Of a DNA stretch of 64,000 nucleotides, positions 16,088 through 56,362 are shown one piece after another. The notes beneath the pieces were generated by a model. The model did not search any database, was not told where the DNA came from, and saw only the letters and a program-made list of their open reading frames with translations. Position 1 is the stretch's first letter. Each line of letters opens with the position of its first letter. Both the position numbers and the translations under genes were made by a program. The DNA comes from Deltaproteobacteria bacterium. GTDB lineage: Bacteria > Myxococcota_A > Polyangia > Polyangiales > Ga0077539. The stretch is taken from positions 155,057 to 219,056 of the forward strand of contig JAUXYJ010000103.1 of the NCBI GenBank assembly GCA_030694465.1, given 5' to 3'.

Positions 16088-18427
16088 GTGTCGTCCCACG
16101 CGCTACCCTCTACGCCGACCTCGTTGGCAGCCCCCCGCAGCCAGCGCCCCTGCCCTGTGTGTCGCGCCCCGGTAGACGTCCTCCGCGCACCCTACGTCGC
16201 GCATCGCGCCGGACACTTTGCCTATTATTGCTCGTTCGCTTGTTTTGAGCAGCGTGCGGACGTGGAGGGATCTCTTCGCGGCTCGACGGCCACAAGCGAT
16301 CCGCTCGCGCGGCCACAGCGCGAGCCCGAGGACCTCGTCGAAGAGCCCCTGGTCCCTGATGATTTGCAGCTCGAAGCACCGAGCCCTGTCGTCGAAGACA
16401 GCGCGCCGTTGCTGTCACAGCCGCTCCCCGTGCTTGTGTCTTTTGTGGGCGAGCCCACGCTCGATGAGCTGCGGATCATGCTCGGAATTCGCAGCGTCGT
16501 AGAGTCGCAGAGCGAAGGCCCCGCGCAGATCCCTGATCTCGTCGAGCGCCGCGCCGAGCCGCTGATCCTCGCGCCCATCACGTGGGTCCCCCTCGGGGCC
16601 GCGGCACTTTGCACGGCGATCACGCTGATCGCGATGCTTAGTTCGTCCGGGATTTCGCTAGCATTTTCGTCAATCGCCGCGCTCGGCGCCCTCACGATCG
16701 CGGGCCGCACGCTCTGGAGTCTGCGCGTGCTGGCACATCCCTTGTGGTGGAGCACTCCCTTCGCCGCCTCGCTGCTCATGATCGCGCGCGCGTCGAGTGT
16801 TCACAGCGCTGGAACATCGCTGGCGCTCGCAGCCCTCTGCGCGAGCGTCTTGCCCCTGCGCGCGTGGTTTGTGCATCGCACAATGCACAGCGCGTTGGGG
16901 GCGCTCGATGCCCAGCAGCGATGGCTTCCGCTGACTGCACGCGTGATCCGCGGCGCCGCGTCTGAGCCGACGATCCTAGAGAGCAAGCAGGTCCGTGCAG
17001 GCGAAGAGGTTCTTGTCGACGCAGGCGAGCGCGTCCCGACCGATGGCGTTGTGCGCGAAGGCGAAGCGACCCTTGAGACGGGCTCTCACGCACGCACCGT
17101 GAGCGTCGGCCATTCGGTCCTCGCCGGAGCGTATGTGCGCACGGGCTCACTGCAATTGCTCGCGACGCGCGCGGGCGAAGACGCAGCCATCATGCGCGCG
17201 CGGGCCATTTTTGATGGGCGCGAAGAGCGTGGTGCGCTCCCGGCGACAGCGCGGAGCCTGCCCACCCTCGCGGTCATAACCGTGGCAATGGCCACCGCGA
17301 TCGCGCTCTTTGTGGCACCGCAAGACCCTCTGGCCACCTTGGCGCTCACGCTCGTCGCGCTGCCCTTGGGGCCACTGCGTGTGCTCTCTCGCGCCCCGTG
17401 GATGCACGCCGCAGCGCAATCTCTCTCGCGCGGAACGGTCTTTCGCGACCTCCCAGCCCTCACCCTCGCCTCGCGCGTCGGGATGCTCGTGCTCTCGGTC
17501 CGCGCCACGCTCACACGCGGAGTGTTCGAGCTGTGCGAGATCGTCTCGATGGGTCATTGGACCGAGAAAGAGCTCCTCGCCCTCGCCGCGGGCGCAGAGC
17601 AACAAGCCCCCGAGCACCCCATCGCGACGGCGATCCTTGACGCCGCGCGGGCCAGACAATTGCGGCCTGATCCTGTGCGCAGACCCATCCCGATGCCAGG
17701 CAAGGGCATCGTGGCGGCGACGTCGCTGGGTGCGCCTCTCGTGGTGGGCTCCCGTGCGCTCTTGATCGCAGAGGGCATCGCGGTGGCGCCAGGCGAAGAG
17801 CTCGCGCGCGCGATCGAAGCCCACGGGCGGCACGCGGTGTTTATCGCGGTGAGCGGTCGCCTCGAGGGGATCTTAGGTCTCGAAGATCGTCCACGTGAAG
17901 ACGCACGAAACACTGTCCAAACGCTGATAGATGCGGGCCTCGCGGTCGCCCTCGTCGGCGGAGAGAGCGCGAACACACTCGACGCCCTGGCCCTCTCGCT
18001 CGACGTCGCGCAGGTCCGCGCCGAGGTGAGTCCCGAGGACCGCCCCGCACAAATTCGCGCATTGGGAGAGCTCTCCGGCTACGTCGCCGTCGCAGGGCAT
18101 CCCGCGCTCGATGACCTCGCGCTCGGCGCCGCCGATGTCTCAATCGGGCTCGCCTCCGCAGGTGGGACCGGCGCAGAGTGCACCATCGCGCTCTCAGGCG
18201 ACGCGCTCCGAGACGCCTCCGACGCGCTCTTGCTCGCGCGGCGTGCACGCAAAGCCAGCCAGTCCATGCTCTGGACCCTGATGATCTCGGGTGTCTTCGG
18301 AGCCCTCGGCCGCACGCTAGGGTTCTCGCTCGCCATCGCCACACTCCTCGCGCTCGTCGTGCCCACCGTGGGCCTGTGGCTGGCCGGAAGATACACACTG
18401 CAAGATCAACCGAGTGAAGGCACCTGA
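16088..18427 (+). CDS. P1B-type (heavy-metal) ATPase homologue with degenerate catalytic motifs and N-terminal TRASH-like Cys motif
   Basis: N-terminal CPVC-x19-C-x3-C metal-binding-like motif. Topology and the conserved HP motif (PEHPIATAIL, cf. SEHPLA) match CopA-like pumps. The other catalytic motifs are degenerate: DKTGTLT is replaced by SVRATLTRG (no phosphorylatable Asp), TM6 CPC by LPL, GDGINDAPAL by AGHPALDDLAL, and TGES by ETGS. GTG start at 16088. Confidence 0.7.
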   Translation: MSSHALPSTPTSLAAPRSQRPCPVCRAPVDVLRAPYVAHRAGHFAYYCSFACFEQRADVEGSLRGSTATSDPLARPQREPEDLVEEPLVPDDLQLEAPSPVVEDSAPLLSQPLPVLVSFVGEPTLDELRIMLGIRSVVESQSEGPAQIPDLVERRAEPLILAPITWVPLGAAALCTAITLIAMLSSSGISLAFSSIAALGALTIAGRTLWSLRVLAHPLWWSTPFAASLLMIARASSVHSAGTSLALAALCASVLPLRAWFVHRTMHSALGALDAQQRWLPLTARVIRGAASEPTILESKQVRAGEEVLVDAGERVPTDGVVREGEATLETGSHARTVSVGHSVLAGAYVRTGSLQLLATRAGEDAAIMRARAIFDGREERGALPATARSLPTLAVITVAMATAIALFVAPQDPLATLALTLVALPLGPLRVLSRAPWMHAAAQSLSRGTVFRDLPALTLASRVGMLVLSVRATLTRGVFELCEIVSMGHWTEKELLALAAGAEQQAPEHPIATAILDAARARQLRPDPVRRPIPMPGKGIVAATSLGAPLVVGSRALLIAEGIAVAPGEELARAIEAHGRHAVFIAVSGRLEGILGLEDRPREDARNTVQTLIDAGLAVALVGGESANTLDALALSLDVAQVRAEVSPEDRPAQIRALGELSGYVAVAGHPALDDLALGAADVSIGLASAGGTGAECTIALSGDALRDASDALLLARRARKASQSMLWTLMISGVFGALGRTLGFSLAIATLLALVVPTVGLWLAGRYTLQDQPSEGT

Positions 18428-20315: not shown

Positions 20316-20846
20316 ATGACACACCCGGCGATCGTATTGCTCCGCGCCATCAACCTCGGATCGCACCACAAGCTCCCCATGGCGCAGCTCGTCGCGCTGC
20401 TTGAGCAAGCCCAGTGCACCGAAGTGCAAACGTACATCCAGAGCGGCAATGTCATCCTGCGCTCGAAACTCCAGGGCGACGCGCTGCGCAAGCACCTTGA
20501 GTCACAGCTGCTCGCAAAGCTCGGCGTTGAGATCCCAGTGGTGGTGTGCTCTCTCGATCACTGGCACACGCTCGCCGCGCGATGTCCTTTTGAGCAGGAC
20601 AATCCCACGCATTTGCATGTGATGTTCTTTGCCCAACCGCTGGCCCCTGTGCCCCTCCTCGAGCCTCTGCGCTATGCGCCCGAGCGCTTCGCCATCGATC
20701 AGCGCGAGATCTTTTTGCACCTCCCCAAGGGCATGGGCGTGTCCAAGCTCGCCCCCGTCATCTCGCGCAAATACCCCGAGGGGACCGCTCGCAACTGGCG
20801 GACGGTCCTCGCGCTCACCGCCCTCGCTGAGAAGCTTACAGCGTAA
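20316..20846 (+). CDS. DUF1697 family protein
   Basis: N-terminus VLLRAINLGSHHKLPMAQLVALLE…VQTYIQSGNVIL matches the DUF1697 signature (LLRGINVGG.NK..MAEL…V.TYIQSGNV.F). Confidence 0.75.
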   Translation: MTHPAIVLLRAINLGSHHKLPMAQLVALLEQAQCTEVQTYIQSGNVILRSKLQGDALRKHLESQLLAKLGVEIPVVVCSLDHWHTLAARCPFEQDNPTHLHVMFFAQPLAPVPLLEPLRYAPERFAIDQREIFLHLPKGMGVSKLAPVISRKYPEGTARNWRTVLALTALAEKLTA

Positions 20847-24721: not shown

Positions 24722-24741
24722 GACCCGGCGACGTCGCCGGA
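24722..24741. repeat. GC palindrome copy 1 (GACCCGGCGACGTCGCCGGA; perfect 16-nt core CCGGCGACGTCGCCGG), 8 nt after OMP stop codon
   Basis: Direct reading. The palindrome is centred on GACGTC. The 20-mer is identical to the copy at 33187–33206. Confidence 0.8.
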
Positions 24742-26422: not shown

Positions 26423-27883
26423 TTGATCACCAATCTGCCGCTCTCACGCGCCGCCAAGCGCGCACTTTGGCTCTGCCTCACCGCGCAGGGTCTGTCAGCG
26501 ATTTTGGCGGCCCTCATGATCCTCGCGGGTCCCGAACTAGACACCGACGCGTTCGGCCACTTTATCGTCGCGCGCCGCATGATCGAGCACCCCAGCATGG
26601 TGTCTGTGCACTGGGTGTGGCTCCCGCTTTGGCACATGGTGTTGGCCGCGATCGAGCTGCTGGGGGGCGGGCTCACCAGCGCGCGCTGGCTCTCGTGGAC
26701 CCTCGGCGGGGTGACCTCTGCCGTTGTATTTGCAGCGCTCTCGCAAGAGAGCCCAGAGCTCGACCGCTCACATCGCGTGATCGAGGCCTCGCTCGCCGCG
26801 GGCCTGTGGGCGCTGTGTCCCCTCGCCCTGCTCGCGCGCAGCTCGGCCGAACCTGAGGCGCTGTTCACATTATTGATCAGCGTCTCTGCGTGGCAGTGGG
26901 CACGCCATCACCCCTGGCGCGCCGGGACAGCGCTGGCCCTCGCGGCGCTCTGTCGCTACGAAGTGTGGCCCGTCCTCGGGGCGGTCGCGCTGTGGCCTTG
27001 GATCAATCCATCCGCCAAATCCCTCGGACAACGCGCGATCGATGCACGCAAAGATCTCGGCACGTGGCTGTTGCCCGCCCTCGCGGTGCTCGCGTGGTGT
27101 GCGGTTCACCGCGTGCAGCACGGCGAGTGGCTCTGGTTTGTCCGCGAGAACCGCGCGTTTGCGCTGCGAGCCGTGGCGCGTTTGTTTGTCTCGCTGCCCT
27201 CGGTGCCGCGTCGCGCGGCTTGGTATGCGCTCACGTTGCCCTGGCTCGTGTGGGGCCCCGCGGTGCTCTTGGCGCCATGGGGAATGTGGCACCTGCATCG
27301 CAGGCGACACCATCGCTGGCTGCTCATGCCCTGCGTGATTGTCACGTTCTTGAGCTACGCGTGGCTGCGAGGACAGCACCTTGGGCTGGTCCGACACGCG
27401 ATCGCGACCAGCCCGTTTTATGCGGGCGCGATTGCGCTCGCGCTGACGGCGTGCGCTCGCTGGGCCCAGGGCGATCCGCGACGACGTGCTGCGTTTGTGT
27501 TGTGCATTGGCGTGTCATTTTGCTGGTTTATGTTCAACGTTGGGGCCCATGTGCGTGGGCATGTGCTGCAGGCCCAAGGCGCCCAGCGCGAGGTCCGCGC
27601 CGCGGCCGCGCTGCTCGCGCGCGAAGCCCACGACGACGCGATGGTGTTTTGCGATGACGCGATGGTCGAGCTGCACGCCGAGCTCGACCGCACGCATGTG
27701 CGTCGCTGGGCCGGGCGCGATGTGCGCCGCGCCAACGTGTGCGAAGCCCAGCTCGCGACAGGTCAGCCGACCTGGGTCGTGAGCACCCCGCGCTCGCTAC
27801 GCGCGCTGCAGGGCCTGTGCGAGCCGAGATTCAGCGCGCGCTCGGTGCTGGTACTGCGCTGTGATTGTCAGCTATTTCGCTGA
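26423..27883 (+). CDS. polytopic membrane protein, GT-C superfamily glycosyltransferase-like (PMT/ArnT-like)
   Basis: About 11 predicted TM helices. The first loop carries D-x-D..FGHF (LDTDAFGHFIV), resembling the DE.HFG motif of GT39/GT83 enzymes. The start (TTG 26423) is uncertain. Confidence 0.45.
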   Translation: MITNLPLSRAAKRALWLCLTAQGLSAILAALMILAGPELDTDAFGHFIVARRMIEHPSMVSVHWVWLPLWHMVLAAIELLGGGLTSARWLSWTLGGVTSAVVFAALSQESPELDRSHRVIEASLAAGLWALCPLALLARSSAEPEALFTLLISVSAWQWARHHPWRAGTALALAALCRYEVWPVLGAVALWPWINPSAKSLGQRAIDARKDLGTWLLPALAVLAWCAVHRVQHGEWLWFVRENRAFALRAVARLFVSLPSVPRRAAWYALTLPWLVWGPAVLLAPWGMWHLHRRRHHRWLLMPCVIVTFLSYAWLRGQHLGLVRHAIATSPFYAGAIALALTACARWAQGDPRRRAAFVLCIGVSFCWFMFNVGAHVRGHVLQAQGAQREVRAAAALLAREAHDDAMVFCDDAMVELHAELDRTHVRRWAGRDVRRANVCEAQLATGQPTWVVSTPRSLRALQGLCEPRFSARSVLVLRCDCQLFR

Positions 27884-28815
27884 TCCAAGTGAGCACGCGC
27901 CTGCGCGATCGCCTCGCGCACGACCTCGGCCGAGTGAGCGAGCTCGCTGCGCTCACGCGCGCTGCATTCAGGCAGTCCCAGCGACGTGGCGCCGTGCGAG
28001 CCCACAATGGCGGGGAGCCCAAGAGTGCACGAGAGCTCTTTGCTGTAGGTCGACACCGTGAGCACCGTGCGCTCGTCGCGTGCGATGGCCCGTGCGATGC
28101 GCGCGGTGACCGCTCCGATCGCGTGAGAGGTAGCGCCCTTGCGCGCGATGATCTCTTGCGCAGCGCCACGCACTTCGCGCGTGAGGGCGTCCCGCCAAGC
28201 ATCATCGAAGGGCACGCCGTTGCGCGCGCAAAACTCGCGCAAGGGCACACCCGCCACGCGCGCGCTGTCGAGCATCGAGACCGACGAGTCACCGTGCTCG
28301 CCCAGCACCCAGGCGTGGACACTCGACGGATGAATCGCGAATTTTTCTGAAATAAAGCTGCGCAAACGCGTGGTGTCGAGCACCGTCCCGGTCCCCAATA
28401 CCGCGACGCCGAGGGGCTCCCATCGGGCACGCAACAGCTCGGTCATCACGTCCACCGGGTTGCTCACGACCACAACGACCCTGGGCAACCCGCCACGCTC
28501 GATGGCCTCAGCGATCTCGCGCATCGCGTGGGCGTTGCGTGCCAAGAGCTCGAGCCTCGTCTCGCCAGGGTGCTGCTTTGCGCCCGCGGTGATCACGCAC
28601 AGGTCCACAGGGACGAGCGCGTCCATCGGCAGCGCCTCGACCTGCGGGGCGCCCATCAAAGGGGCCGCGTGTGCGAGGTCCAGGGCCTCACCCTGGGCCT
28701 TGTCCATCTTAATGTCCGTTAAGATTAAATGACTAGCGATTTGGCTGTACATCATGGACATCGCGCACGCGACTCCGACGGCCCCGGCGCCCACGATCAA
28801 CACACGATATTTCAT
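27868..28815 (-). CDS. ldh: L-lactate dehydrogenase
   Basis: Rossmann motif VLIVGAGAVG. The substrate loop ITAGAKQHPGETRLEL has Gln rather than the Arg of LDH-like MDHs. Catalytic motif GEHGDS. Confidence 0.85.
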   Translation of the reverse strand: MKYRVLIVGAGAVGVACAMSMMYSQIASHLILTDIKMDKAQGEALDLAHAAPLMGAPQVEALPMDALVPVDLCVITAGAKQHPGETRLELLARNAHAMREIAEAIERGGLPRVVVVVSNPVDVMTELLRARWEPLGVAVLGTGTVLDTTRLRSFISEKFAIHPSSVHAWVLGEHGDSSVSMLDSARVAGVPLREFCARNGVPFDDAWRDALTREVRGAAQEIIARKGATSHAIGAVTARIARAIARDERTVLTVSTYSKELSCTLGLPAIVGSHGATSLGLPECSARERSELAHSAEVVREAIAQARAHLDQRNS

Positions 28816-28820
28816 ACCCG

Positions 28821-29333
28821 CTAGCGCCCCATGCGGCCGGTGAGCTCAAGGAGCACGGTGTTGGTCGCCTCGCTTGGAGGCGGCAGCCTCGTCGAGGCGA
28901 TCCCGCGAAAGGTCAGGACGCCCGCGGTGACGCTCATCGTGACCATGCGAAAGGTCAGCGTGGTCTGCGTCCCGCCCGCGGTCACAGTGCACATCGCGCC
29001 ATCGGCGAACACAGCCGAATTACCACGCCGTTGCGCAGAGATGGTGCACAGCGACGCGCTCGACGTGTCCGAAAAGGTCACGCTCATCGAGGGCATCGGG
29101 CTGTTCTCGATGCGCACAATGACGTTGCTCGGCGACGCGGTCCCTGGGCCCGAAGGGGTCTGCTCGGTGGCGGTCCCGCTCATGGCCCAGGTGCCCAAGA
29201 AGGGCCCCGCGCCGGCCTCGACCACCTCGCCTGGCACAACGATCAACGGAGAGCCCGCGCCGCACGCCGTAGCGCTCAGGGCCATGCCAATCACCAACGC
29301 AGCCGAGAGCCGCGACCATCGAGGGGTATTCAC
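28821..29333 (-). CDS. lipoprotein, cassette component A (paralogue of 31077..31682)
   Basis: Lipobox LSATACG. It shares GTWAMSGTAT, …DGAMCTV… and GVLTFRGIAS blocks with the upstream paralogue. Confidence 0.5.
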   Translation of the reverse strand: MNTPRWSRLSAALVIGMALSATACGAGSPLIVVPGEVVEAGAGPFLGTWAMSGTATEQTPSGPGTASPSNVIVRIENSPMPSMSVTFSDTSSASLCTISAQRRGNSAVFADGAMCTVTAGGTQTTLTFRMVTMSVTAGVLTFRGIASTRLPPPSEATNTVLLELTGRMGR

Positions 29334-29381
29334 GGGGCGAGATCTTACGCAAGGTCGCGCGCAGAAGACAGCCGCGAGCGC

Positions 29382-30014
29382 TCAGCAGTGCGCGACGTTT
29401 GCCGCACGAATCATCATCGCGCGCACCACCCTGAGCACCACCGCGTTGTTGAGCCCTACGCGCTCGGTCGCGCCGATGCCCGACTGCACGGTGGTCACAT
29501 AGCGCCGCCGCGAGATGCTCCCTGGCGTCGCCACGTAGCCCGAGACCGCGGCCGCCTCGACCAAGACCTCGATGGTGGCCCCACGAGGGCTCGTCCAGCG
29601 GATCCTCGACATCCGCCGCGCCAAGATCCCGCTGAGGTCCTCGGCGAGGTCCTGCGCCCTAAACGCGGTCTGCTGCGAGGTCACTGGGGCGAGCCTCCGC
29701 AATCGTCTCGCCATCGCCCGCTCACCGATGCGCTCAAGGGCCATCGGCGCGAGCTCGCGCACCATCATGTCCGCGATCACGTAGCCCACTTCGCGCTCGG
29801 AAAACGCGGCAGTGCTCACGCCGGATGAGTTGTCAATTTGCACGTCGCTGAGCCCGCCCGCGACCGCGCGGAGCTGTCGCATGGCGTCGTTGCGCAAGAG
29901 ATTGAGCGTGGGGCTCGGCGAGAGACACCGCGGCTGCGCGCTCGCTCGCGACGGTCCCACGGTGATCGCACTCACACACACGGCCAACGCACACACCCAG
30001 GTCGTCCAACGCAT
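29382..30014 (-). CDS. secreted protein, cassette component B (paralogue of 31654..32277)
   Basis: Signal peptide MRWTTWVCALAVCVSAITVGPSRASA. It aligns along its whole length with the B' copy (QPRC.SPSPTL…AAFSEREVGYVIADMMVRELAP…ANVAHC). The start is set at ATG 30014 to avoid overlap with glk. Confidence 0.5.
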   Translation of the reverse strand: MRWTTWVCALAVCVSAITVGPSRASAQPRCLSPSPTLNLLRNDAMRQLRAVAGGLSDVQIDNSSGVSTAAFSEREVGYVIADMMVRELAPMALERIGERAMARRLRRLAPVTSQQTAFRAQDLAEDLSGILARRMSRIRWTSPRGATIEVLVEAAAVSGYVATPGSISRRRYVTTVQSGIGATERVGLNNAVVLRVVRAMMIRAANVAHC

Positions 30015-30027
30015 GGGCGCCAGTGTC

Positions 30028-31020
30028 TCATGCCAGCAGGGCTGACGCTCGCGCGGCGCCCCACAATGGCAAGCGCTCGTCGGTGATGAGCCAGATGGGC
30101 ATGGCCGCGAGGGTCTGCGCAAAGCGCCCCTTGTCGCTAAATCCCCTGCAAAAGTCCCCGAGTTCGAGCACTTTTGCGAGCTTGGCGCTCACGCCCCCTG
30201 CGACGTACACTCCGCCGCGAGACAGCACGCTCAGCGCGAGGTTGCCTGCCTCGGCGCCATACAGCTCGCAGAAGCGTCGGGCTGCGCGCATGCACAACAC
30301 ATCTCGGCCCTGGACCGCTTCGTCACCGATGACCGCCGAGGGGTCTTCGTGGGCCATGCGCTCTCGGACACGTGGGCTCTCGGCGCCTGGTTCGCGCTGG
30401 GCCATTGAGGCATAGACCCACGCGAGACCTGGGCCAGAGACAATTCGCTCGACCGAAACGTGAGGGTTTTCGCCGCCCAATCGCGCTTGGGTAAATCGCA
30501 ACAGGGCGACGTCTTCGTCGGTCCGTGGCGCGAAGCTCTTGTGTCCACCCTCGGTCGCGATCGCGAAGTGTTGTCCCTGGTGTGCGATCAACGCGCTCTC
30601 GCCCAAGCCCGTCCCTGCGGCGATCACGGCGATGTTGGCGTTGCGATCCGCGGTGCCTTCTTGCAAGCACACACACTGCGAAGGGTCGACCGCGAGCACC
30701 CCGTACGCGGTCGCTTGGAGGTCATTGAGCAAGAGCACCCGCGAGGGCGCGACCCCCAGCGTATGCGCGAGCGCGCGGCCGTCGATGACCCAGCGCAGGT
30801 GCGTGGTCTCACAGCGCTGATCGCTGACCACTCCGGGGAGCCCAAAGCATGCCGAGGTCACGCGCGAATCCGAGAGAAATTGCACACAGAGCGCATCCAG
30901 AGAGTCCCACGATGCGCTGTCAAAGACAGCCTCGCGCACGAGGCTAGGCGTGGGCCCTTGGGTCTCGAAGAGGCCGAGTCGAACTTTGGTTCCACCGATG
31001 TCACCTGCGAGGATTGTCAC
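30028..31020 (-). CDS. glk: glucokinase
   Basis: ILAGDIGGTKVRLGLF N-terminal ATP-binding motif typical of Glk. LLNDLQATAYG. GTG start at 31020 assumed. Confidence 0.85.
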   Translation of the reverse strand: MTILAGDIGGTKVRLGLFETQGPTPSLVREAVFDSASWDSLDALCVQFLSDSRVTSACFGLPGVVSDQRCETTHLRWVIDGRALAHTLGVAPSRVLLLNDLQATAYGVLAVDPSQCVCLQEGTADRNANIAVIAAGTGLGESALIAHQGQHFAIATEGGHKSFAPRTDEDVALLRFTQARLGGENPHVSVERIVSGPGLAWVYASMAQREPGAESPRVRERMAHEDPSAVIGDEAVQGRDVLCMRAARRFCELYGAEAGNLALSVLSRGGVYVAGGVSAKLAKVLELGDFCRGFSDKGRFAQTLAAMPIWLITDERLPLWGAARASALLA

Positions 31021-31048
31021 GGGGGCAAAGTTAGCAGAGCAGCCCCGT

Positions 31049-31068
31049 ACCCGGCTACGTCGCCGGGT
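31049..31068. repeat. GC palindrome variant copy (ACCCGGCTACGTCGCCGGGT), between cassette gene A' stop and glk start
   Basis: One mismatch relative to the perfect palindrome. It lies 9 nt downstream of the TAG at 31077–31079 (minus strand) and ~28 nt upstream of the putative glk GTG. Confidence 0.6.
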
Positions 31069-31076
31069 GGCTCGCG

Positions 31077-31682
31077 CTAGCGACGCCCAGAGAGCTCCGA
31101 GCGGGTGATCCTGGGCTCTTGGTCGCGGCCAAAGCCAGGCAACCACATTCGCGCAGAGATCACCCCGCGAAAACTCAGCACGCCGTGCTGCACCGAGAGC
31201 GAGGCTTGAGAGAACACAAGATCAACGAACACCGGTGAACTTCCAGTCCGACAGGGCGTCCCCTCGGCGATCACGGCGGTGTTGCGAGTCCGCGCGAGGG
31301 GCACAACGCACAACACCTCGGCAGGCTCAAAGACGGTGAGCTGCAGGCCCCTCCCTGGGATGTCTTCGATCCGCATCGTGAGCGTCACGGGTCTCACCAG
31401 AGGCAGAGGCTCGCCAGGTCCCGACAGATGGGTCGCCGTCCCGGTCATGGTCCACACCCCCACCATGGACTCGAGGGGTGCCTCTTCGAGCCTCGTGAGG
31501 GGGTCATCGAGGGGCGTGCTCGCGCCGCACGAGAGCGCGCAAAGCGCCTGCCCCATCGCGAGCGCGATCCCCAGAGTCCGCGTCGCCCGTCTGTCCCCCA
31601 TGGTCTTCACCTTGGGGGTGACTGTAGCAAACCTCGGGCAAGATGGGTAGTGGTCACTCACATCGCGCCACGCTCGCAGCAC
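31077..31682 (-). CDS. lipoprotein, cassette component A' (paralogue of 28821..29333)
   Basis: Lipobox ALSCGAS. It has GVWTMTGTAT, …EGTPCRT…, GVLSFRGVIS. Confidence 0.5.
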   Translation of the reverse strand: MLRAWRDVSDHYPSCPRFATVTPKVKTMGDRRATRTLGIALAMGQALCALSCGASTPLDDPLTRLEEAPLESMVGVWTMTGTATHLSGPGEPLPLVRPVTLTMRIEDIPGRGLQLTVFEPAEVLCVVPLARTRNTAVIAEGTPCRTGSSPVFVDLVFSQASLSVQHGVLSFRGVISARMWLPGFGRDQEPRITRSELSGRR

Positions 31683-32277
31683 GGATCAACATCGCCCTCA
31701 TGATTTGCAGTACCGCTTCACTCTGTAAGCCTACGCGCTCGGTGGCTCCGACCCCTGACTGGATCGTGGTGACATAGCGCACGCGGTGCATGCTGCCGGG
31801 GGTCGCGACATAGCCCGAGACCGCAGCCGCCTCGACCAGAACCTCGAGGGTCGCACCACGCGGAGTTCTCCAACGGACACGCCCCATCCGTCGCGCGAGC
31901 GTGTTGGCGAGGTCTTCGGCAAGGTCCTGCGCCCGAAATGCGGTCTGCTGGGAGGTCACCGGCGCGAGCCTCCGCAGACGCCTGGCCATCGCGCGCTCTC
32001 CGATGCGCTCGAGCGCGAGGGGCGCGAGCTCACGGACCATCGTGTCTGCGATCACATAGCCAACTTCGCGCTCTGAAAACGCAGCCAAGTCCACACCCGA
32101 TGAGTTGACGATAGGGACATCTCGGAGACCCGTCGCCACGTGATGAAGCTGCCGCATCCCGGCGTCACGGACCATCGCCAACGTGGGACTAGGCGACACA
32201 CACCGAGGCTGTGCAGAGGCACTCACCGACGCGCTGCCAAGCACAAGGACACACAGACTCGCAGGGATCCATCGCAC
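31654..32277 (-). CDS. secreted protein, cassette component B' (paralogue of 29382..30014)
   Basis: Signal peptide MRWIPASLCVLVLGSASVSASA. About 75% nucleotide identity with the B copy over its length. Confidence 0.5.
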   Translation of the reverse strand: MRWIPASLCVLVLGSASVSASAQPRCVSPSPTLAMVRDAGMRQLHHVATGLRDVPIVNSSGVDLAAFSEREVGYVIADTMVRELAPLALERIGERAMARRLRRLAPVTSQQTAFRAQDLAEDLANTLARRMGRVRWRTPRGATLEVLVEAAAVSGYVATPGSMHRVRYVTTIQSGVGATERVGLQSEAVLQIMRAMLIRAASVARCE

Positions 32278-32393: not shown

Positions 32394-32897
32394 CTAACCC
32401 GGCGACGTCGCCGGGTTACTCACTGCCATGGCGTCTACCCGCGCGACGAGCGCATCGAGCCGGTCCACCAGCGCACGTTGCGTGTCAATTTGCTGCTGTG
32501 CGAGCGCTTGCGCGGTGTCTTCTCGGGCTCGCTGCGCTGCGCTCGGGGGCTCGAGCGCGCGCGCGGCCATCGCGGGCCCGAGGGTCATCAATGCGCTCGC
32601 GATGGCCTTGCCCGCGGTGGTCACCGCGAACACCCGCGCATAGCCCACCGAGAGACACGTGGTGGTGAACACCAAGGCGTCCCAGAACGAGTTGACCTCG
32701 GGGTTTGCGTCGCGCTCGGCGACATAGAACAGCCACGCGCTCCCGAGGCTCGTCGCGATCACCGCGTCCAACGGATCTTGGGCGATCACTGCGCGAAGCT
32801 CATCGCGCGCCGCGCCGTACGCGCCGCCTAGGTCTTGCGACCCAAGCACGCGGCCAAGCGCTGAGAGCGCGAGGGTCTCGGCGGCGTTTGTGCTCAT
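32394..32897 (-). CDS. 2-TM ion-channel-like protein with K+-channel-type pore loop (non-canonical filter)
   Basis: TM1 (LDAVIATSLGSAWLFYVA), then NSFWDALVFTTTCLSVGYA (cf. K+-channel sfwWavvTmTTVGYGD), then TM2 (VFAVTTAGKAIASALMTLGPAMAA), then a helical C-terminal tail. Its ATG overlaps the flotillin stop (ATGA). Confidence 0.55.
   Translation of the reverse strand: MSTNAAETLALSALGRVLGSQDLGGAYGAARDELRAVIAQDPLDAVIATSLGSAWLFYVAERDANPEVNSFWDALVFTTTCLSVGYARVFAVTTAGKAIASALMTLGPAMAARALEPPSAAQRAREDTAQALAQQQIDTQRALVDRLDALVARVDAMAVSNPATSPG
32396..32417. repeat. GC palindrome copy 2 (AACCCGGCGACGTCGCCGGGTT, perfect 22-nt palindrome) forming the last 7 codons of the channel-like gene
   Basis: Direct reading. 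On the minus strand it encodes …NPATSPG followed immediately by TAG. Confidence 0.8.
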
Positions 32898-35083
32898 GCG
32901 CCCTCGGCCTCGCGTGCGGTGTCACTCGCTGCGCGCACACCGATGGTGCCCGTGGCGTTGGCGTCCATCGCGGCGAGTTTGGCTGCGAGCTCGGGGTCTT
33001 CGTTGGCGACCTTGCGCAGCTCTTCGGGGAGCGCGCCCAGCATTTTGCGCGCCGAATCGGTCAGGCGGTCCGTGTCAACCTGTGCAAACTGCATGAGCTC
33101 ACGCAAGAGCGGAAACGCCGCGCCCGCCTCGAGGATCGTGCGCAACACAGGCGACGCCGCGCCGAACGCGCCCTGTCCGTTGCCCGACCCGGCGACGTCG
33201 CCGGATGAGCCACCCTGGCCATTGTTCATCTGCAAGACCTTGATCTCGCGGATGGCGTGCGCCGGGGCCATGAGCTCTTTGGTCACGTCGGGCAGCACGG
33301 TGAGCGCCTTGAGCACGATGTCACGCAGCAAGAACTTGCTGGCCACTTGGTTCTCGGCGTCGACCAACGCTTTGCGTGCGTCGGCCTCGGCGGCGCCCTT
33401 TTGCCGCGTCGCTTCAGCGAGCGCGATGAGCGCTTCGGCCTCGAGCTGCGCAGCTTTTGCCCGCGCCTCTGCAGTGATTCTCACGCGGTCTGCGTCTGCT
33501 TGGGCCTCGGCACGGACCACATTGGCCGCCGAGTCCGCGGCGACCATGAGCGCGCGCGCAGAGCCCTCTGCCTCGGCGATGTGGCCCTCGGCTTGGGCAC
33601 GCTTCGCCGCTGCAGCGCCGTCGGCTTCGGCTTTGACGGCAGCCGCGCTGGTCTCTGCGCCAAGCTTGCGTACAAAGGCTTCGCGCTCGGCCGCGATACG
33701 CGCTTGCTGAGCGCTCTCTTCGGATTTAATCACCGCGATCTCTTTCTCGCGGCGGGCCTGTGCGGTGGCTTCGACCGTGAGAATTCCCTGGGTTGCCTGC
33801 GTTCGGTCCGCTTCGGCTTGGAGCTTGAGCGCCTCGGCGCGGGCCTCGACCTCGAGCGCCTGGGTCACCGCGATTTGCTTGGACACACGCGCGGTCTCGA
33901 TCACGCGCTGCTTCTCGATTTCGGCAGCCTCGATGGTCTTGACCTTCTCGATCTCGGCGGTCTCGATGGTCTTGCGCTTCTCGACCTCGGCGTTCTCGAC
34001 GGTGCGCTGCTTCTCGATCATCGCGGCCTCGACCTCGCGCTCTTTGGCGATCACCGCGACCTGCTGCTGCTTCTCGGACGAAATCTGCGCCTCGCGGGTC
34101 GCAGCGACGCGCTGAGCCTCTGCGATTTGCAGTGCTTTTTGCTGCTCGATCTTCGCGTTCTGCACAGCCTGCTCTTTCGAGAGCGCGGCCATCTCTTGGT
34201 CGCGCTGCTGCTCGTACACGGCCTTGGCGGTCGCGGTCGATTGCGTCGCGGTGTACTCTTGCACACGGCGTGTCTGGTCACTCTCGTTGCGGTTGTCCGC
34301 TTCGATCAGCTCAAGCGCGCGACGATGCGCGGTGACGTTTTGCTCTTGGATCGCGACGTCGGCTTCGCGCTCGATCAAGTTGGTCTTGCGCGCGTTGGCC
34401 TTCACCTGCTCGGTGATGGTCATCAGGCCCTCGGAGTCAAAGAAGTCCGACGCGTTGAGCTCGGCGATCGACACCATTGCGAGGGCCGTGATTGACACGT
34501 TCTCGAGGGTAAGACCGTTCTTTTTGAGCTCTTCAGAGAGGGCCTTCTGGATGCTCTCGGCGAAGTCTTTGCGGTTGGTGTGCAGCTCCATAAACGAGCT
34601 GTTGGCCGCGACAGAGCGCAGGGCGTCCGTGAGCTTTCCCTCGATGAGATCGCCGATCGCGCCTTCGTCGAGGTTGCGCTCACCAAACGAGCGCGCCGCG
34701 GTGAGCACGTCGTCTTCGAGCGGCTCGACCTTGATGTAGAGCTCGGTCGTGACGGTCGCGCGGATCTTGTCGCGCGTCACCAGGGCCATGTTGCCCGAGC
34801 GATCGACCGTGAGTTTATGCGAGCGAAGTGAGACTCGCATGAGCTGATGCAAGATCGGAAACACGGTGACACCGCCGCCGATCACCACTTTGTTTCCGCC
34901 TGCGCCCGTACGCACCAGCGCCTCGTCAGCGCCACAGCGACGATAAAACCGCGCGATGGTGACGAGCAACAGCGTGAACACAAAGATCACCGCCGAAGCG
35001 ATCAACGCCGAGACAATAAACTGCGGCTGCTCCCAAAAGCGAAGCGCCGAACCCTGTGCGACAAAGACCTCTAGCTGATTCAT
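32894..35083 (-). CDS. flotillin-like SPFH/band-7 protein (YqiK-type) with long EA-rich coiled coil
   Basis: N-terminal TM, PHB domain (…KLTVDRSGNMALVTRDKIRATVTTELYIKV…) and an extended EA/Q-rich repeat region typical of flotillins. Confidence 0.85.
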   Translation of the reverse strand: MNQLEVFVAQGSALRFWEQPQFIVSALIASAVIFVFTLLLVTIARFYRRCGADEALVRTGAGGNKVVIGGGVTVFPILHQLMRVSLRSHKLTVDRSGNMALVTRDKIRATVTTELYIKVEPLEDDVLTAARSFGERNLDEGAIGDLIEGKLTDALRSVAANSSFMELHTNRKDFAESIQKALSEELKKNGLTLENVSITALAMVSIAELNASDFFDSEGLMTITEQVKANARKTNLIEREADVAIQEQNVTAHRRALELIEADNRNESDQTRRVQEYTATQSTATAKAVYEQQRDQEMAALSKEQAVQNAKIEQQKALQIAEAQRVAATREAQISSEKQQQVAVIAKEREVEAAMIEKQRTVENAEVEKRKTIETAEIEKVKTIEAAEIEKQRVIETARVSKQIAVTQALEVEARAEALKLQAEADRTQATQGILTVEATAQARREKEIAVIKSEESAQQARIAAEREAFVRKLGAETSAAAVKAEADGAAAAKRAQAEGHIAEAEGSARALMVAADSAANVVRAEAQADADRVRITAEARAKAAQLEAEALIALAEATRQKGAAEADARKALVDAENQVASKFLLRDIVLKALTVLPDVTKELMAPAHAIREIKVLQMNNGQGGSSGDVAGSGNGQGAFGAASPVLRTILEAGAAFPLLRELMQFAQVDTDRLTDSARKMLGALPEELRKVANEDPELAAKLAAMDANATGTIGVRAASDTAREAEGA
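33187..33206. repeat. GC palindrome copy 3 (GACCCGGCGACGTCGCCGGA) inside flotillin CDS
   Basis: Identical 20-mer to copy 1. It encodes SGDVAGSG in the Gly-rich C-terminal region of the flotillin. Confidence 0.8.
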
Positions 35084-35200
35084 GGTGTCCCGACCTCCCG
35101 ATGTTTGTGACCAAGTTGTGCTGTGAATTTGCTGACCAACGCGACCATCGCGCGGACACCAGAGACACAGCTACAGGCTCGGCACAGACTGCGATACTTG

Positions 35201-35941
35201 CTATGTGCGACGACGACCGGGCAGCACGCTGTCGAGCGCGCTGACGACCAGTCGACCTTGCTCTTGCTCGACCACAACGACCTCGCGTCCCTCTTCAATG
35301 GGCACGCTGTCATGGGTCACGCACACCACACGGACGACGTGCCCGATGCGGTCTTTGATCCGAACCTCGCCAAACTCGCGGTCGACCCTGCTTGAGATCA
35401 CCACGCCGCTGCTTCCCACGAGCCCCTCGCGCGAGGTCGCCTCTTGGCCCTCGGTCGAGAACACTTTGCCGGCGATCGCCGCCATCGCGCGGGTACACAG
35501 CGCACCGATCACCAGCGCGATCGGGATCACCCAGACCATGGACCACAGCGGCGGCCGCGCGAACCCATAGACCAGCGTGTTGACCGAGAGCCCCGCGACG
35601 GCAAACGCCACCGCGAAGGTCTGCAGCAAGAAGGTCATCGGCGCGCGACCAAAGCCCAACAAGCCCACGAGCGAGACCGTGGCTTCGCCCTGCACGCTCA
35701 CGGCGTGGTGCCCTTCGCTCTCGCTCTCACCGTCCGCGTCTCCATCGCCGTCGGCGTCGGTGTCCACGCTGTCCGGGACTCCGTCGCCATCGCTGTCGTG
35801 GCCGTCGGCGTCGCCATGGTCACCGCCCGCGAGCAAGCCCAGGACGCCTGAGACCTGCAAGAGAGCTACACCTACCGCGATCGCGACCGCGGTGAGATAA
35901 GGCACGTTTGCCCAAGCGAGCCATGCAGACAAAACGGTCAT
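35201..35941 (-). CDS. NfeD-like (YqiJ-type) membrane protein with C-terminal OB-fold
   Basis: N-terminal TM helices, an acidic/His-rich loop (DHGDADGHDSDGDG), and a C-terminal beta-rich segment (GEVRIKDRIGHVVRVVCV…VVVVEQEQGRLVV) typical of NfeD partners of flotillins. Confidence 0.7.
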   Translation of the reverse strand: MTVLSAWLAWANVPYLTAVAIAVGVALLQVSGVLGLLAGGDHGDADGHDSDGDGVPDSVDTDADGDGDADGESESEGHHAVSVQGEATVSLVGLLGFGRAPMTFLLQTFAVAFAVAGLSVNTLVYGFARPPLWSMVWVIPIALVIGALCTRAMAAIAGKVFSTEGQEATSREGLVGSSGVVISSRVDREFGEVRIKDRIGHVVRVVCVTHDSVPIEEGREVVVVEQEQGRLVVSALDSVLPGRRRT

Positions 35942-36291
35942 CAAGAACGGCCCTTGCGTGCCACACGCTCTCGCCCAAAAAGACGAGATGCGCGGCCGCG
36001 AAGTGAGAGAATGCGGGTGGGAAACCTCCGCAAAAAAGTGAGCGCCACGATGGGTGCAGATCCGCGTTGGCTCCGTCAACGGCAGATCGGTCACGCATCA
36101 TCCGATTTTGCGCGGCTGTCACCGAAGGCTTTCTGGCGAAAAGTTGCCTTGGAGCGCGGTTCTGTAGCTTAGCTCGGCCAGATTCGGTCACCTGGACGCG
36201 CCCCACGCGGCGCCGCGGGTGTCCCCCTCTGCCACGAGAGCGGGTTGTTTTGTAGTCCAACACAGCCGCCTCGTGTCATCCGACGGAGCGA

Positions 36292-54016: not shown

Positions 54017-56362
54017 TTAGCGTCTGGGGCAATGGGACGTCGCCGGCCGCAAGAGCTCACTCATGCGCGAGCGGAGCTGCTCGGCGACCGCGGACTCTTG
54101 GCTGTACACATTGCGCCGCTCGGCCGCGTCGCGATCGAGCTGAAACAGCTCCCAGCTGTTGCGTGTCGCGTCGTGGAGGAGCTTCCACGGGGGCGCTACG
54201 AGCGCGAGGCTCGTCGGACGGAGATCTCCACCGGGGGACACATCTGCCGCGAGGGCACCACGCCACGGGATCTGCGCTTCGGGTGCGCTCTGAAGCAGCG
54301 GGACCAGCGACCTCGCGGGCGAGCGCAGCGTGGGCGTGCGGCCTACGTACGCGAGCGCGGTGGGATACAAATCCATCAACGAGACGAGGCTGCGACGCGG
54401 CCCCGGACGAATCCCCGGACCCCGCACTACGAGCACCACCCGCAGCGCCTCTTCGTGCGCGTCAAACGCGTGGTAATTTACACCGTGTTCGTTAAACGCT
54501 TCGCCGTGATCGCTGAACACCACGACGATGAGCGGGCGAGCCTCTGCGATGCGGTTGGCCGTGCGAAACAAGCGAGGCAAGAGCGAGTCTACGTGGGCGA
54601 TCTCTTCGTCGTAACGGTCGATCGGTTCGTGGCCGAAATCCCGAGGCTCTGTGCGATCGGTGTAGGGCTCGTGCGGATCGACCATGTGCACCCACAAGAA
54701 GAAGGGCCGCGCCTGACGACCCGCGTTGAGGAGCCAATCGCGCGCGTGGTCTACGGTCACGTACGCGGCATCTTTGAACCCGTTGCCCTGCTCGACCGTG
54801 TCAAATCCCTGAAAAAATCCAGCCGTTAGCGCGAAGTAGCTCGTGTTGGTGTAGGCCCCTGTCGCGTAGTTTTCTACGCGGAGCACCTCGGCGAGCATCT
54901 CGTTCGCGTCACGCAATGGCGGAAACTGCGGGTCGCGTCCCCAGCACAGGCTCGCCGGAGGGCGCCCTGAGAACGCGCTCGCGAACGCGCGGATGGTCTG
55001 CGGCGCCGTGGTGTACGCCTGATCAAATCGCGCGGCGTTCTGTGCGAATTCTCTGAGATTGGGCGTGGTGTCACGCGCGTATCCGTAGAGCGATGTGTGA
55101 TCCGGGCGCATCGTGTCGATCGAGATAAACAGCACCGAGGGGTGGTTGCTCGCGGGAGCGACGAAGGGCGCAGGGCGATCCTCGGGCGCGGGCACAGCGT
55201 CGAGCCCTGTGCAGTTTTCGTCCCGTCCATTGCCTGGAATATCTCGCGCGAGTGGGTTGATCCGAGGATCGCGGTCGTTGCAATCGCCCCCGCCAAAGTA
55301 CCGGCCGTAGCCATCATGGTCCGCGTCAGTCCAGCGCTGTAGCGTCGGAAAAATCTTTGAAGCGAGCAGCGACCGCTGAGTGATCGCGTCGGTAATCCAT
55401 GGGTTTTTTCCGAGCGTCATCGCGCTCAACCCAAACGCGACGACCACTGTGCTCGCCAGCACCCACGTCACCGAACGCGCGATCGTGGGTCGAGCTCTCT
55501 GCACCCACCGCAGCGCGAGCCCATAGCCCACCAAGCCCATCAGCGACAACCCGAGCGGGCGGAGGTCCAGACGACTTAGAACGTTTCGTCCTGCAAAAAC
55601 AGTGACCAATAGAGACAAGCCTGCGAGCGCTGCCACCACCAATCCCACTGCGCCTGGGCTCGCCCAGCGACGTCGCCGGGACAACGGGAGCTCGAGCATC
55701 ATGGCCGCGACCATGGCCGCGATCACCCCAAGCCCGAGCGACGCCACGCCCGCCGAGACGATCAGAATCGCAGCCAGCATGGGCGTCCGCACGCTCTGCA
55801 CGATGAGCACAGTGGCCCGCAGCGCGATGACTGCCGCAGTGAGCGTGCCAATCGAGGCCATCACCACACGCAGGGCGCCACGTTGGTCCTCGGCGAACCA
55901 TCGCGCGGGGCCCTCAAGAAAATAGGCACGCGCGCGCTGCACCGAGCCTCGACGAAGCGAAGAGAAAACCGCAATGGCGTGCAAAATCCCTAGCATAGAG
56001 CCCAAGGGGGCGATCGCACCGAGGGCATACGCGAGCAGCCACCCCAGCCCACTCGCGCGACGCTCAAACGCCGAGGTCCGCGCAAAGGCAACGAGTGTGT
56101 CTGTAAGCGCGAGCGCGCACGAGACGCCAAGCGCGGCGCTCACATGGGCCAAGAGCAACACGCGCAGGGTGGGCGGCTCGATCGCAGTGGGCGTCTCGGA
56201 CGACGCGGTCGTGGGAGCAGATGTCACGGTAAATCGCTGGATCGCAGAGAGCTGCGCAGACGCGTTCGACACTAGCGCGAATCGACAGCGCGATGCGTAG
56301 TCATTTGTCGCATCGGTGGGTGCTCTGCGCGGCAACGCGAGTACACTGCCTGCACCTTTCAT
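54017..56362 (-). CDS. membrane-anchored sulfatase-like (alkaline-phosphatase superfamily) hydrolase/transferase
   Basis: At least 8 N-terminal TM helices. C-terminal domain with SIDTMRPDH metal-binding motif and a TTAPQT putative Thr nucleophile region (LtaS/EptA/arylsulfatase-like). The exact start is uncertain. Confidence 0.75.
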   Translation of the reverse strand: MKGAGSVLALPRRAPTDATNDYASRCRFALVSNASAQLSAIQRFTVTSAPTTASSETPTAIEPPTLRVLLLAHVSAALGVSCALALTDTLVAFARTSAFERRASGLGWLLAYALGAIAPLGSMLGILHAIAVFSSLRRGSVQRARAYFLEGPARWFAEDQRGALRVVMASIGTLTAAVIALRATVLIVQSVRTPMLAAILIVSAGVASLGLGVIAAMVAAMMLELPLSRRRRWASPGAVGLVVAALAGLSLLVTVFAGRNVLSRLDLRPLGLSLMGLVGYGLALRWVQRARPTIARSVTWVLASTVVVAFGLSAMTLGKNPWITDAITQRSLLASKIFPTLQRWTDADHDGYGRYFGGGDCNDRDPRINPLARDIPGNGRDENCTGLDAVPAPEDRPAPFVAPASNHPSVLFISIDTMRPDHTSLYGYARDTTPNLREFAQNAARFDQAYTTAPQTIRAFASAFSGRPPASLCWGRDPQFPPLRDANEMLAEVLRVENYATGAYTNTSYFALTAGFFQGFDTVEQGNGFKDAAYVTVDHARDWLLNAGRQARPFFLWVHMVDPHEPYTDRTEPRDFGHEPIDRYDEEIAHVDSLLPRLFRTANRIAEARPLIVVVFSDHGEAFNEHGVNYHAFDAHEEALRVVLVVRGPGIRPGPRRSLVSLMDLYPTALAYVGRTPTLRSPARSLVPLLQSAPEAQIPWRGALAADVSPGGDLRPTSLALVAPPWKLLHDATRNSWELFQLDRDAAERRNVYSQESAVAEQLRSRMSELLRPATSHCPRR

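Follow-up and report, generated by a model that had tools for sequence, protein, structure and literature searches.

What does it mean that a gene of central metabolism lies between two copies of a pair of genes for exported proteins? The question is raised by a stretch of 64,000 nucleotides (nt) from a Deltaproteobacteria bacterium (contig JAUXYJ010000103.1; this whole stretch is hereafter the window), in which positions 28821 to 32277 carry two copies of a gene for an arginine-rich exported protein, B, each followed by a gene for a probable lipoprotein, A, with a glucokinase gene (glk) between the two pairs. The first-pass annotation had regarded a housekeeping gene embedded in this way as unusual, and had suggested that A and B may form a co-evolving module of the toxin–immunity or effector–partner kind. 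We propose instead that the locus would be the residue of an old segmental duplication in which glk is a passenger, B the functional core at the cell envelope and A a lineage-restricted accessory lipoprotein, a joint reading to which we give a probability of roughly 0.55. The copies lying upstream in the direction of transcription are called B1 and A1 (B' and A' in the first-pass annotation), and the others B2 and A2 (its B and A). The genes are the following, in the order in which they are transcribed:

31654 to 32277, minus strand: B1, precursor of 207 amino acids; 52 nt to A1
31077 to 31601, minus strand: A1, precursor of 174 amino acids; 56 nt to glk
30028 to 31020, minus strand: glk, glucokinase of 330 amino acids; 13 nt to B2
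29382 to 30014, minus strand: B2, precursor of 210 amino acids (NCBI protein P0002, Q8Q09_27805); 48 nt to A2
28821 to 29333, minus strand: A2, precursor of 170 amino acids (NCBI protein P0006, Q8Q09_27800); 5 nt to the start of ldh
27868 to 28815, minus strand: ldh-family gene, 315 amino acids, L-lactate/malate dehydrogenase family; last gene of the glk-B2-A2-ldh run

Duplication of the B–A pair

The order B1–A1–hairpin–glk–B2–A2–ldh, with all genes co-directional, agrees with the genes and the order first annotated, as does the 13-nt gap between glk and B2. The similarity noted between the copies proved to be far above chance: B1 and B2 share 151 of 205 residues (73.8%; BLASTP E-value 5e-98), and A1 and A2 share 52 of 146 (36%; E-value 7e-23). 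At the DNA level, a single collinear blastn match pairs 32214-31431 with 29939-29166 (E-value 1.7e-109), extending from inside the B signal peptide, through the position of the spacer, to about codon 57 of A. The coding sequences for mature B agree at 73% of their nucleotides, close to the figure of about 75% first given, and identity falls to a random level in the flanks and in the B–A spacer. Since this alignment covers B and the start of A in one collinear block, the B–A pair was copied as one piece and in direct orientation. The proposal of a two-gene exported cassette that was duplicated as a unit, diverged and now brackets glucokinase is thus borne out; of the description "divergently duplicated", the divergence of the sequences stands, but the copies lie on the same strand and are not inverted. 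The signature of a tandem segmental duplication is present, namely copies on the same strand that are collinear over more than one gene and are each other's closest relatives: B1 and B2 are 73.8% identical, compared with 48-60% (at most 60.5%) to any orthologue. B2 lies 3-7 percentage points further than B1 from every orthologue, suggesting that the divergence of the two B copies after duplication was mildly asymmetric. No additional copy of A or B was found in the 64-kb window.

The duplication occurred long ago and in this lineage only. By the Nei-Gojobori method, the synonymous and nonsynonymous divergences (dS and dN) between the copies are 1.14 and 0.23 for B, and 1.27 and 0.76 for A. In terms of the proportions of nonsynonymous and synonymous sites that differ, mature B is strongly constrained, with a pN/pS of 0.26 (bootstrap confidence interval 0.19-0.34), and mature A is weakly constrained, with a pN/pS of 0.76 (0.62-0.91) that remains below 1 in 99.8% of bootstraps. 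That both A and B are intact in both copies after a dS above 1 fits a functional pair. Across codons 91-120 of B, a core of 30 codons, not one amino acid differs between the copies although pS there is 0.49-0.57; the high synonymous divergence attributes the invariance of this core to purifying selection. The same pS values ruled out gene conversion as the origin of the identical core, and no window of low dS was found along B, which indicates that no recent gene conversion has occurred. Between A1 and A2, tblastx similarity runs over the full length in the annotated frame only, and it persists in the 3' half, from which similarity of the DNA has disappeared. This frame-specific conservation argues that A is translated.

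Some of the gene boundaries call for comment. The coordinates of A1, A2 and B2 match the NCBI calls in the source genome (Q8Q09_27800, 27805 and 27815, on a contig of 313 kb). The 29-nt overlap first reported between B1 and A1 holds for the longest open reading frame (ORF) of A1, which begins at GTG 31682 (31077-31682), but disappears with the likely start at ATG 31601, which leaves a spacer of 52 nt after B1. The latter start is preferred because it corresponds to the 174-amino-acid database call (P0005), is preceded by AAGGTGA and gives a signal peptide of normal length, and because the G+C content at third codon positions (GC3) is lower in the 5' extension of the longer frame. An antisense ORF of 223 amino acids (28831-29502, plus strand) lies across A2 and extends over the 3' end of B2, and the gene caller of the Logan assembly took it in place of A2; GC3 does not discriminate between the strands. 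As judged from the sequences, the frame-specific conservation with A1 favours A2. For glk, the start codon is GTG 31020, 56 nt past the A1 stop, giving VTILAGDIGGTK, and the Logan assembly carries an identical call of 330 amino acids. Its assignment as a glucokinase is secure, with 299 bits against PF02685 (cut-off 22.1; E-value 4.5e-89) and 232.1 bits against TIGR00749, above the cut-off of 225.45. The ldh-family gene contains the Pfam domains Ldh_1_N and Ldh_1_C, and its best NCBIfam match is the L-lactate dehydrogenase model TIGR01771, at 281.7 bits, below the cut-off of 303.55.

Proteins B and A and their relatives

As read from the sequences, B is Sec-exported, with an A-x-A cleavage site that is kept in the orthologues. 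The signal peptide of B1 is MRWIPASLCVLVLGSASVSASA, followed by QPRC, and that of B2 ends in SRASA, again followed by QPRC; the signal-peptidase site thus lies between ASA and Q in both copies, and A20, A22, Q23 and C26 are invariant in five sequences. The mature B1 protein comprises about 185 residues with an isoelectric point (pI) of 11.0 and contains 25 arginines and no lysine; the pI of mature B2 is 11.3. In fact, none of the four mature proteins, B1, B2, A1 and A2, contains a single lysine, an arginine-over-lysine bias that is extreme even for a genome of 65% GC. Two cysteines are invariant in the alignment of orthologues, C26, the fourth residue of the mature chain, and C206, at the C-terminus, and B is probably disulfide-stabilised. 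An AlphaFold2 model built from a four-sequence alignment predicts an all-helical bundle, with a predicted local distance difference test (pLDDT) score of 64 for the whole chain and of 75-89 in the core, residues 70-160. Neither B1 nor B2 matched a Pfam or NCBIfam profile, B1 had no family in PHROGs or PADLOC, PDB sequence searches with the B profile returned noise only, and a Foldseek search of the model against the PDB gave nothing with an E-value below 0.27. Secreted disulfide-stabilised four-helix-bundle proteins, such as the plant invertase and pectin methylesterase inhibitors, resemble B in fold class only, at 5-10% identity, with the scores of any helical bundle and no Pfam match.

A is probably a lipoprotein with an atypical lipobox, judging from its sequence. 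The lipobox of A2, VIGMALSATA before the cysteine, fits the PROSITE PS51257-type lipoprotein pattern; A1, whose signal peptide ends in ALS before the cysteine, misses that pattern by one position, having a cysteine at -4, and the strict [LVI][ASTVI][GAS]C motif fits neither. Cleavage at the lipobox site by signal peptidase I instead is possible. The mature A1 protein has about 150 residues and a pI of 6.2 (about 6.3 for A in general), and the signal peptide, the cysteine at +1 and two further cysteines are common to A1 and A2. From these two sequences, AlphaFold2 predicts an all-beta, up-and-down barrel (pLDDT 62). The modelled barrel may be likened to small, calycin-like beta-barrel lipoproteins, such as lipid-binding proteins of the BT_2261 type, bacterial lipocalins and proteins of the avidin or MliC type. 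A1 and A2 have no family in Pfam, NCBIfam, PHROGs or PADLOC, a PDB sequence search with the A profile gave noise only, and across all libraries searched A1 and A2 have only each other as relatives.

The distribution of B is also very narrow. Among 5.8 billion clustered proteins, the only matches to B were its own entry, that of B2 and two clusters of orthologues; when 1.8 billion representatives were searched exhaustively with the B profile (HMMER), one further orthologue and nine weak matches emerged, and scans of GTDB species representatives and of JGI metagenomes yielded one B locus each. The orthologues occur in only three other lineages, all from Myxococcota metagenomes, and always in single copy. 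In the MAG-91 "Myxococcales" lineage (four loci, L001-L003 and L005), B is flanked by a GTPase-like gene on one side and a DUF1697 gene on the other; the same arrangement is found in a second lineage (L004), 74.5% identical to the first, and on contig LNFM01001175 (L008) B lies between two unrelated genes of the opposite strand. Within 10 kb of these orthologues (L001-L005, L008), no A-like ORF or glk was found, and ldh never adjoins B. Apart from the source genome, the complete locus was found in a single assembly (L006/L007), which encodes A and B without any amino-acid difference, preserves the order of the genes and appears to represent the same organism. The DUF1697 gene directly follows the B orthologue (10718-11257 in L005, 795-929 in L004). 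The window itself contains a DUF1697 gene at 20316-20846 on the plus strand, about 8.5 kb from A2 and on the other strand, with 35% protein identity (tblastx); its proximity to B–A may be what is left of an older synteny.

Beyond the orthologues, the core of B belongs to a broader set of proteins. Eight of the nine weak matches of the B-profile HMMER search (proteins P0008-P0015; L011, positions 1633-2145) contain the motif AD..VR..AP.ALE..G....A..LR.L.PVT...TA, and residues 55-122 of B (31912-32115) align to the seven-member alignment A4 with an hhalign probability of 97.8% (E-value 8e-13). These relatives, which include a tandem fusion with pentapeptide repeats, are mostly cytoplasmic, without a signal peptide, and differ in their N- and C-terminal parts. 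One is located on a phage-like contig of many small co-directional ORFs, and another on a chromosomal contig whose context is uninformative. PDB sequence searches with the profiles of the distant relatives returned noise only. Because these relatives are unannotated and none has been solved, the link assigns no function to B.

Palindromes, transcription and neighbouring genes

A GC-rich palindrome lies between A1 and glk, as first annotated, and further copies are spread over the window. The two copies that flank the B1–A1 pair, and the gene preceding the pair, are:

31050 to 31067: CCCGGCTACGTCGCCGGG, 10 nt past the A1 stop, between A1 and glk
32394 to 32897, minus strand: Ion_trans_2 gene, upstream of B1; 116 nt to B1
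32398 to 32415: perfect palindrome copy CCCGGCGACGTCGCCGGG, in the last codons of the Ion_trans_2 gene, before the 116-nt spacer that precedes B1

The 18-nt palindrome CCCGGCGACGTCGCCGGG has six matches in the window, for 0.35 expected, at 24724-24741, 31050-31067, 32398-32415, 33188-33205 and 55663-55680, with a sixth, weaker one at 17713-17730. Three copies are located at or just past the 3' ends of genes, without a T-tract; two are intragenic, in the C-terminal region of the flotillin and in an ORF of 781 amino acids, and the flanks of the copies are mutually dissimilar. The palindrome may be a terminator-like hairpin or an element of the repetitive extragenic palindromic type. The copy after A1 is predicted to fold into a GC stem of 7 bp, the whole stretch folding no better than shuffled sequences (z -0.8), and the copy before B1 into a stem of 10 bp (z -1.9). 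The former is a candidate for the end or punctuation of a B1–A1 transcript; the latter separates the Ion_trans_2 operon from B1. The hairpin after A1, together with the 13-nt and 5-nt gaps on either side of B2–A2, suggests two transcripts, B1–A1 and glk–B2–A2–ldh. No sigma-70-type promoter or canonical terminator was found around the cassette, nor any riboswitch or other Rfam element. Upstream (32394-36094, minus strand) lie a YqiJ/NfeD-like gene, a gene for a flotillin of 729 amino acids (Band_7 and Flot) and the small Ion_trans_2 channel gene. The ORFs of the flotillin and the channel share 4 nt, so this set is probably a membrane-microdomain operon.

Origin of the locus and rival explanations

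We hypothesise that a three-gene segment, either B–A–glk or glk–B–A, was tandemly duplicated and that the redundant glk copy was then lost, which would yield B1–A1–glk–B2–A2. Following this simple route, the sandwiched housekeeping gene would not be unusual, as had been supposed; glk would be a passenger and its co-transcription with B2–A2–ldh a matter of position. B could have its site of action in the periplasm or the envelope, where its helical core of 65 residues, charged and invariant, would bind a conserved partner, and A would serve as an accessory lipoprotein, restricted to this lineage, that tethers or binds B, or the ligand of B, at the membrane. Since the duplication, most of the change between the pairs would have accumulated in A and in the N-terminal third of B. 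Direct copies, collinear over two genes and with a single-copy gene between them, are what is seen in tandem segmental duplication with differential loss; at this locus the ends of the duplicated segment and the lost glk copy can no longer be discerned (dS > 1).

Several points weigh against this proposal. No remnant of a second glk copy was found at the locus; at such a dS none would be expected to be visible, and the route through duplication and loss is argued from parsimony. The interaction of A with B is putative, the lipidation of A1 is uncertain, and both structural models have moderate confidence (pLDDT 62-64), built as they are from alignments of two and four sequences. In addition, the orthologues of B work without an adjacent A, so that A may be an unrelated hitch-hiker, and a genuine functional link could underlie the close spacing to glk and ldh.

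The most pointed alternative is a conflict module, in which B would be an exported effector or toxin that A, as a lipoprotein of the periplasm, inhibits or gives immunity against; the pair would have been duplicated and would be diversifying as its partners co-evolve antagonistically. It would account for an exported two-gene unit of very narrow distribution whose two partners are kept in both copies, and for the fast evolution of A (36% identity, pN/pS 0.76). Co-encoded beta-barrel inhibitors are known, such as MliC/PliC, the serralysin inhibitor Inh and the staphostatins, and the barrel modelled for A may resemble them, at the level of the fold only. However, the presumed effector is the slow-evolving partner, since B is under strong purifying selection with an invariant core, and even A stays below a pN/pS of 1; the rapid diversification of interacting partners expected of such a module is not what the copies display. 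No toxin, immunity or defence family was found for A1, A2 and B1 in Pfam, NCBIfam, PHROGs and PADLOC, or for B2 in Pfam and NCBIfam, and the structural matches are no better than those of generic helical bundles. Among the neighbours within about 10 kb that were scanned against Pfam, none belongs to a mobile element or a secretion system. In three lineages the orthologues stand without an adjacent A-like gene, which would be unexpected of an unguarded exported toxin; that B is there a single gene unlinked to glk comes close to the arrangement that the first-pass annotation had itself set against its proposal. Toxin–immunity and polymorphic-toxin modules, including the myxobacterial SitA/SitI, do share with this locus an adjacent pair with a lipoprotein, a narrow spread and one fast partner, but here there is no toxin domain, the supposed toxin is the conserved partner and the orthologues are without the partner gene. 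SitI is cytoplasmic and SitA-type lipoprotein toxins are much longer than A, whereas A and B are both exported. We therefore regard a conflict module as unlikely. A related and similarly improbable proposal is that of an undescribed envelope module, in which an exported, arginine-rich helical effector B, its invariant core directed at a conserved target, would be bound or neutralised by its cognate barrel lipoprotein A, duplication having given two specificity pairs, one of them within a glycolytic operon.

The position of the genes could also point to a role of A and B at the envelope in sugar metabolism, in glucose acquisition or lactate handling, with a functional linkage to glk and ldh. 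As far as the sequence goes, the 13-nt gap between glk and B2 and the 5-nt gap between A2 and ldh would imply that B2–A2 are co-transcribed with the enzymes that begin and end the fermentation of glucose to lactate. Nevertheless, the orthologues of B adjoin GTPase-like and DUF1697 genes or unrelated genes and never glk or ldh, A and B have no transporter, binding-protein or enzyme signature in Pfam or NCBIfam, and the hairpin sets B1–A1 apart from glk. A literature search for a link between glk, ldh and a lipoprotein in Myxococcota found no papers. We consider such a role quite unlikely. It might finally be argued that only B is real, and that the A frames are chance open frames of 65% GC DNA in a duplicated spacer, given a family of two members in all libraries searched, weak constraint, and the equivocal GC3 and antisense call at A2. 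Against this stand the full-length similarity confined to the annotated frame, even where DNA similarity is absent, the conserved signal peptide, cysteine at +1 and two further cysteines, the bootstrap support for a pN/pS below 1 and the coherent barrel that AlphaFold2 yields from two sequences; the antisense ORF, for its part, intrudes on the 3' end of B2, which is conserved. That A is non-functional thus appears very unlikely.

On the reading as an old segmental duplication, the locus is genuine but evolutionarily ordinary, with two uncharacterised, narrowly distributed exported proteins, and a housekeeping gene sandwiched by paralogues requires no special explanation. Its importance is mostly one of annotation, in that it brings to light a tiny, unannotated family of exported proteins in Myxococcota (B) and a genome-specific lipoprotein (A), and it ties the 65-residue core of B to a wider uncharacterised family. 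If it is true that A and B bind each other specifically, the diverged copies would constitute a small natural experiment in the co-divergence of partners.

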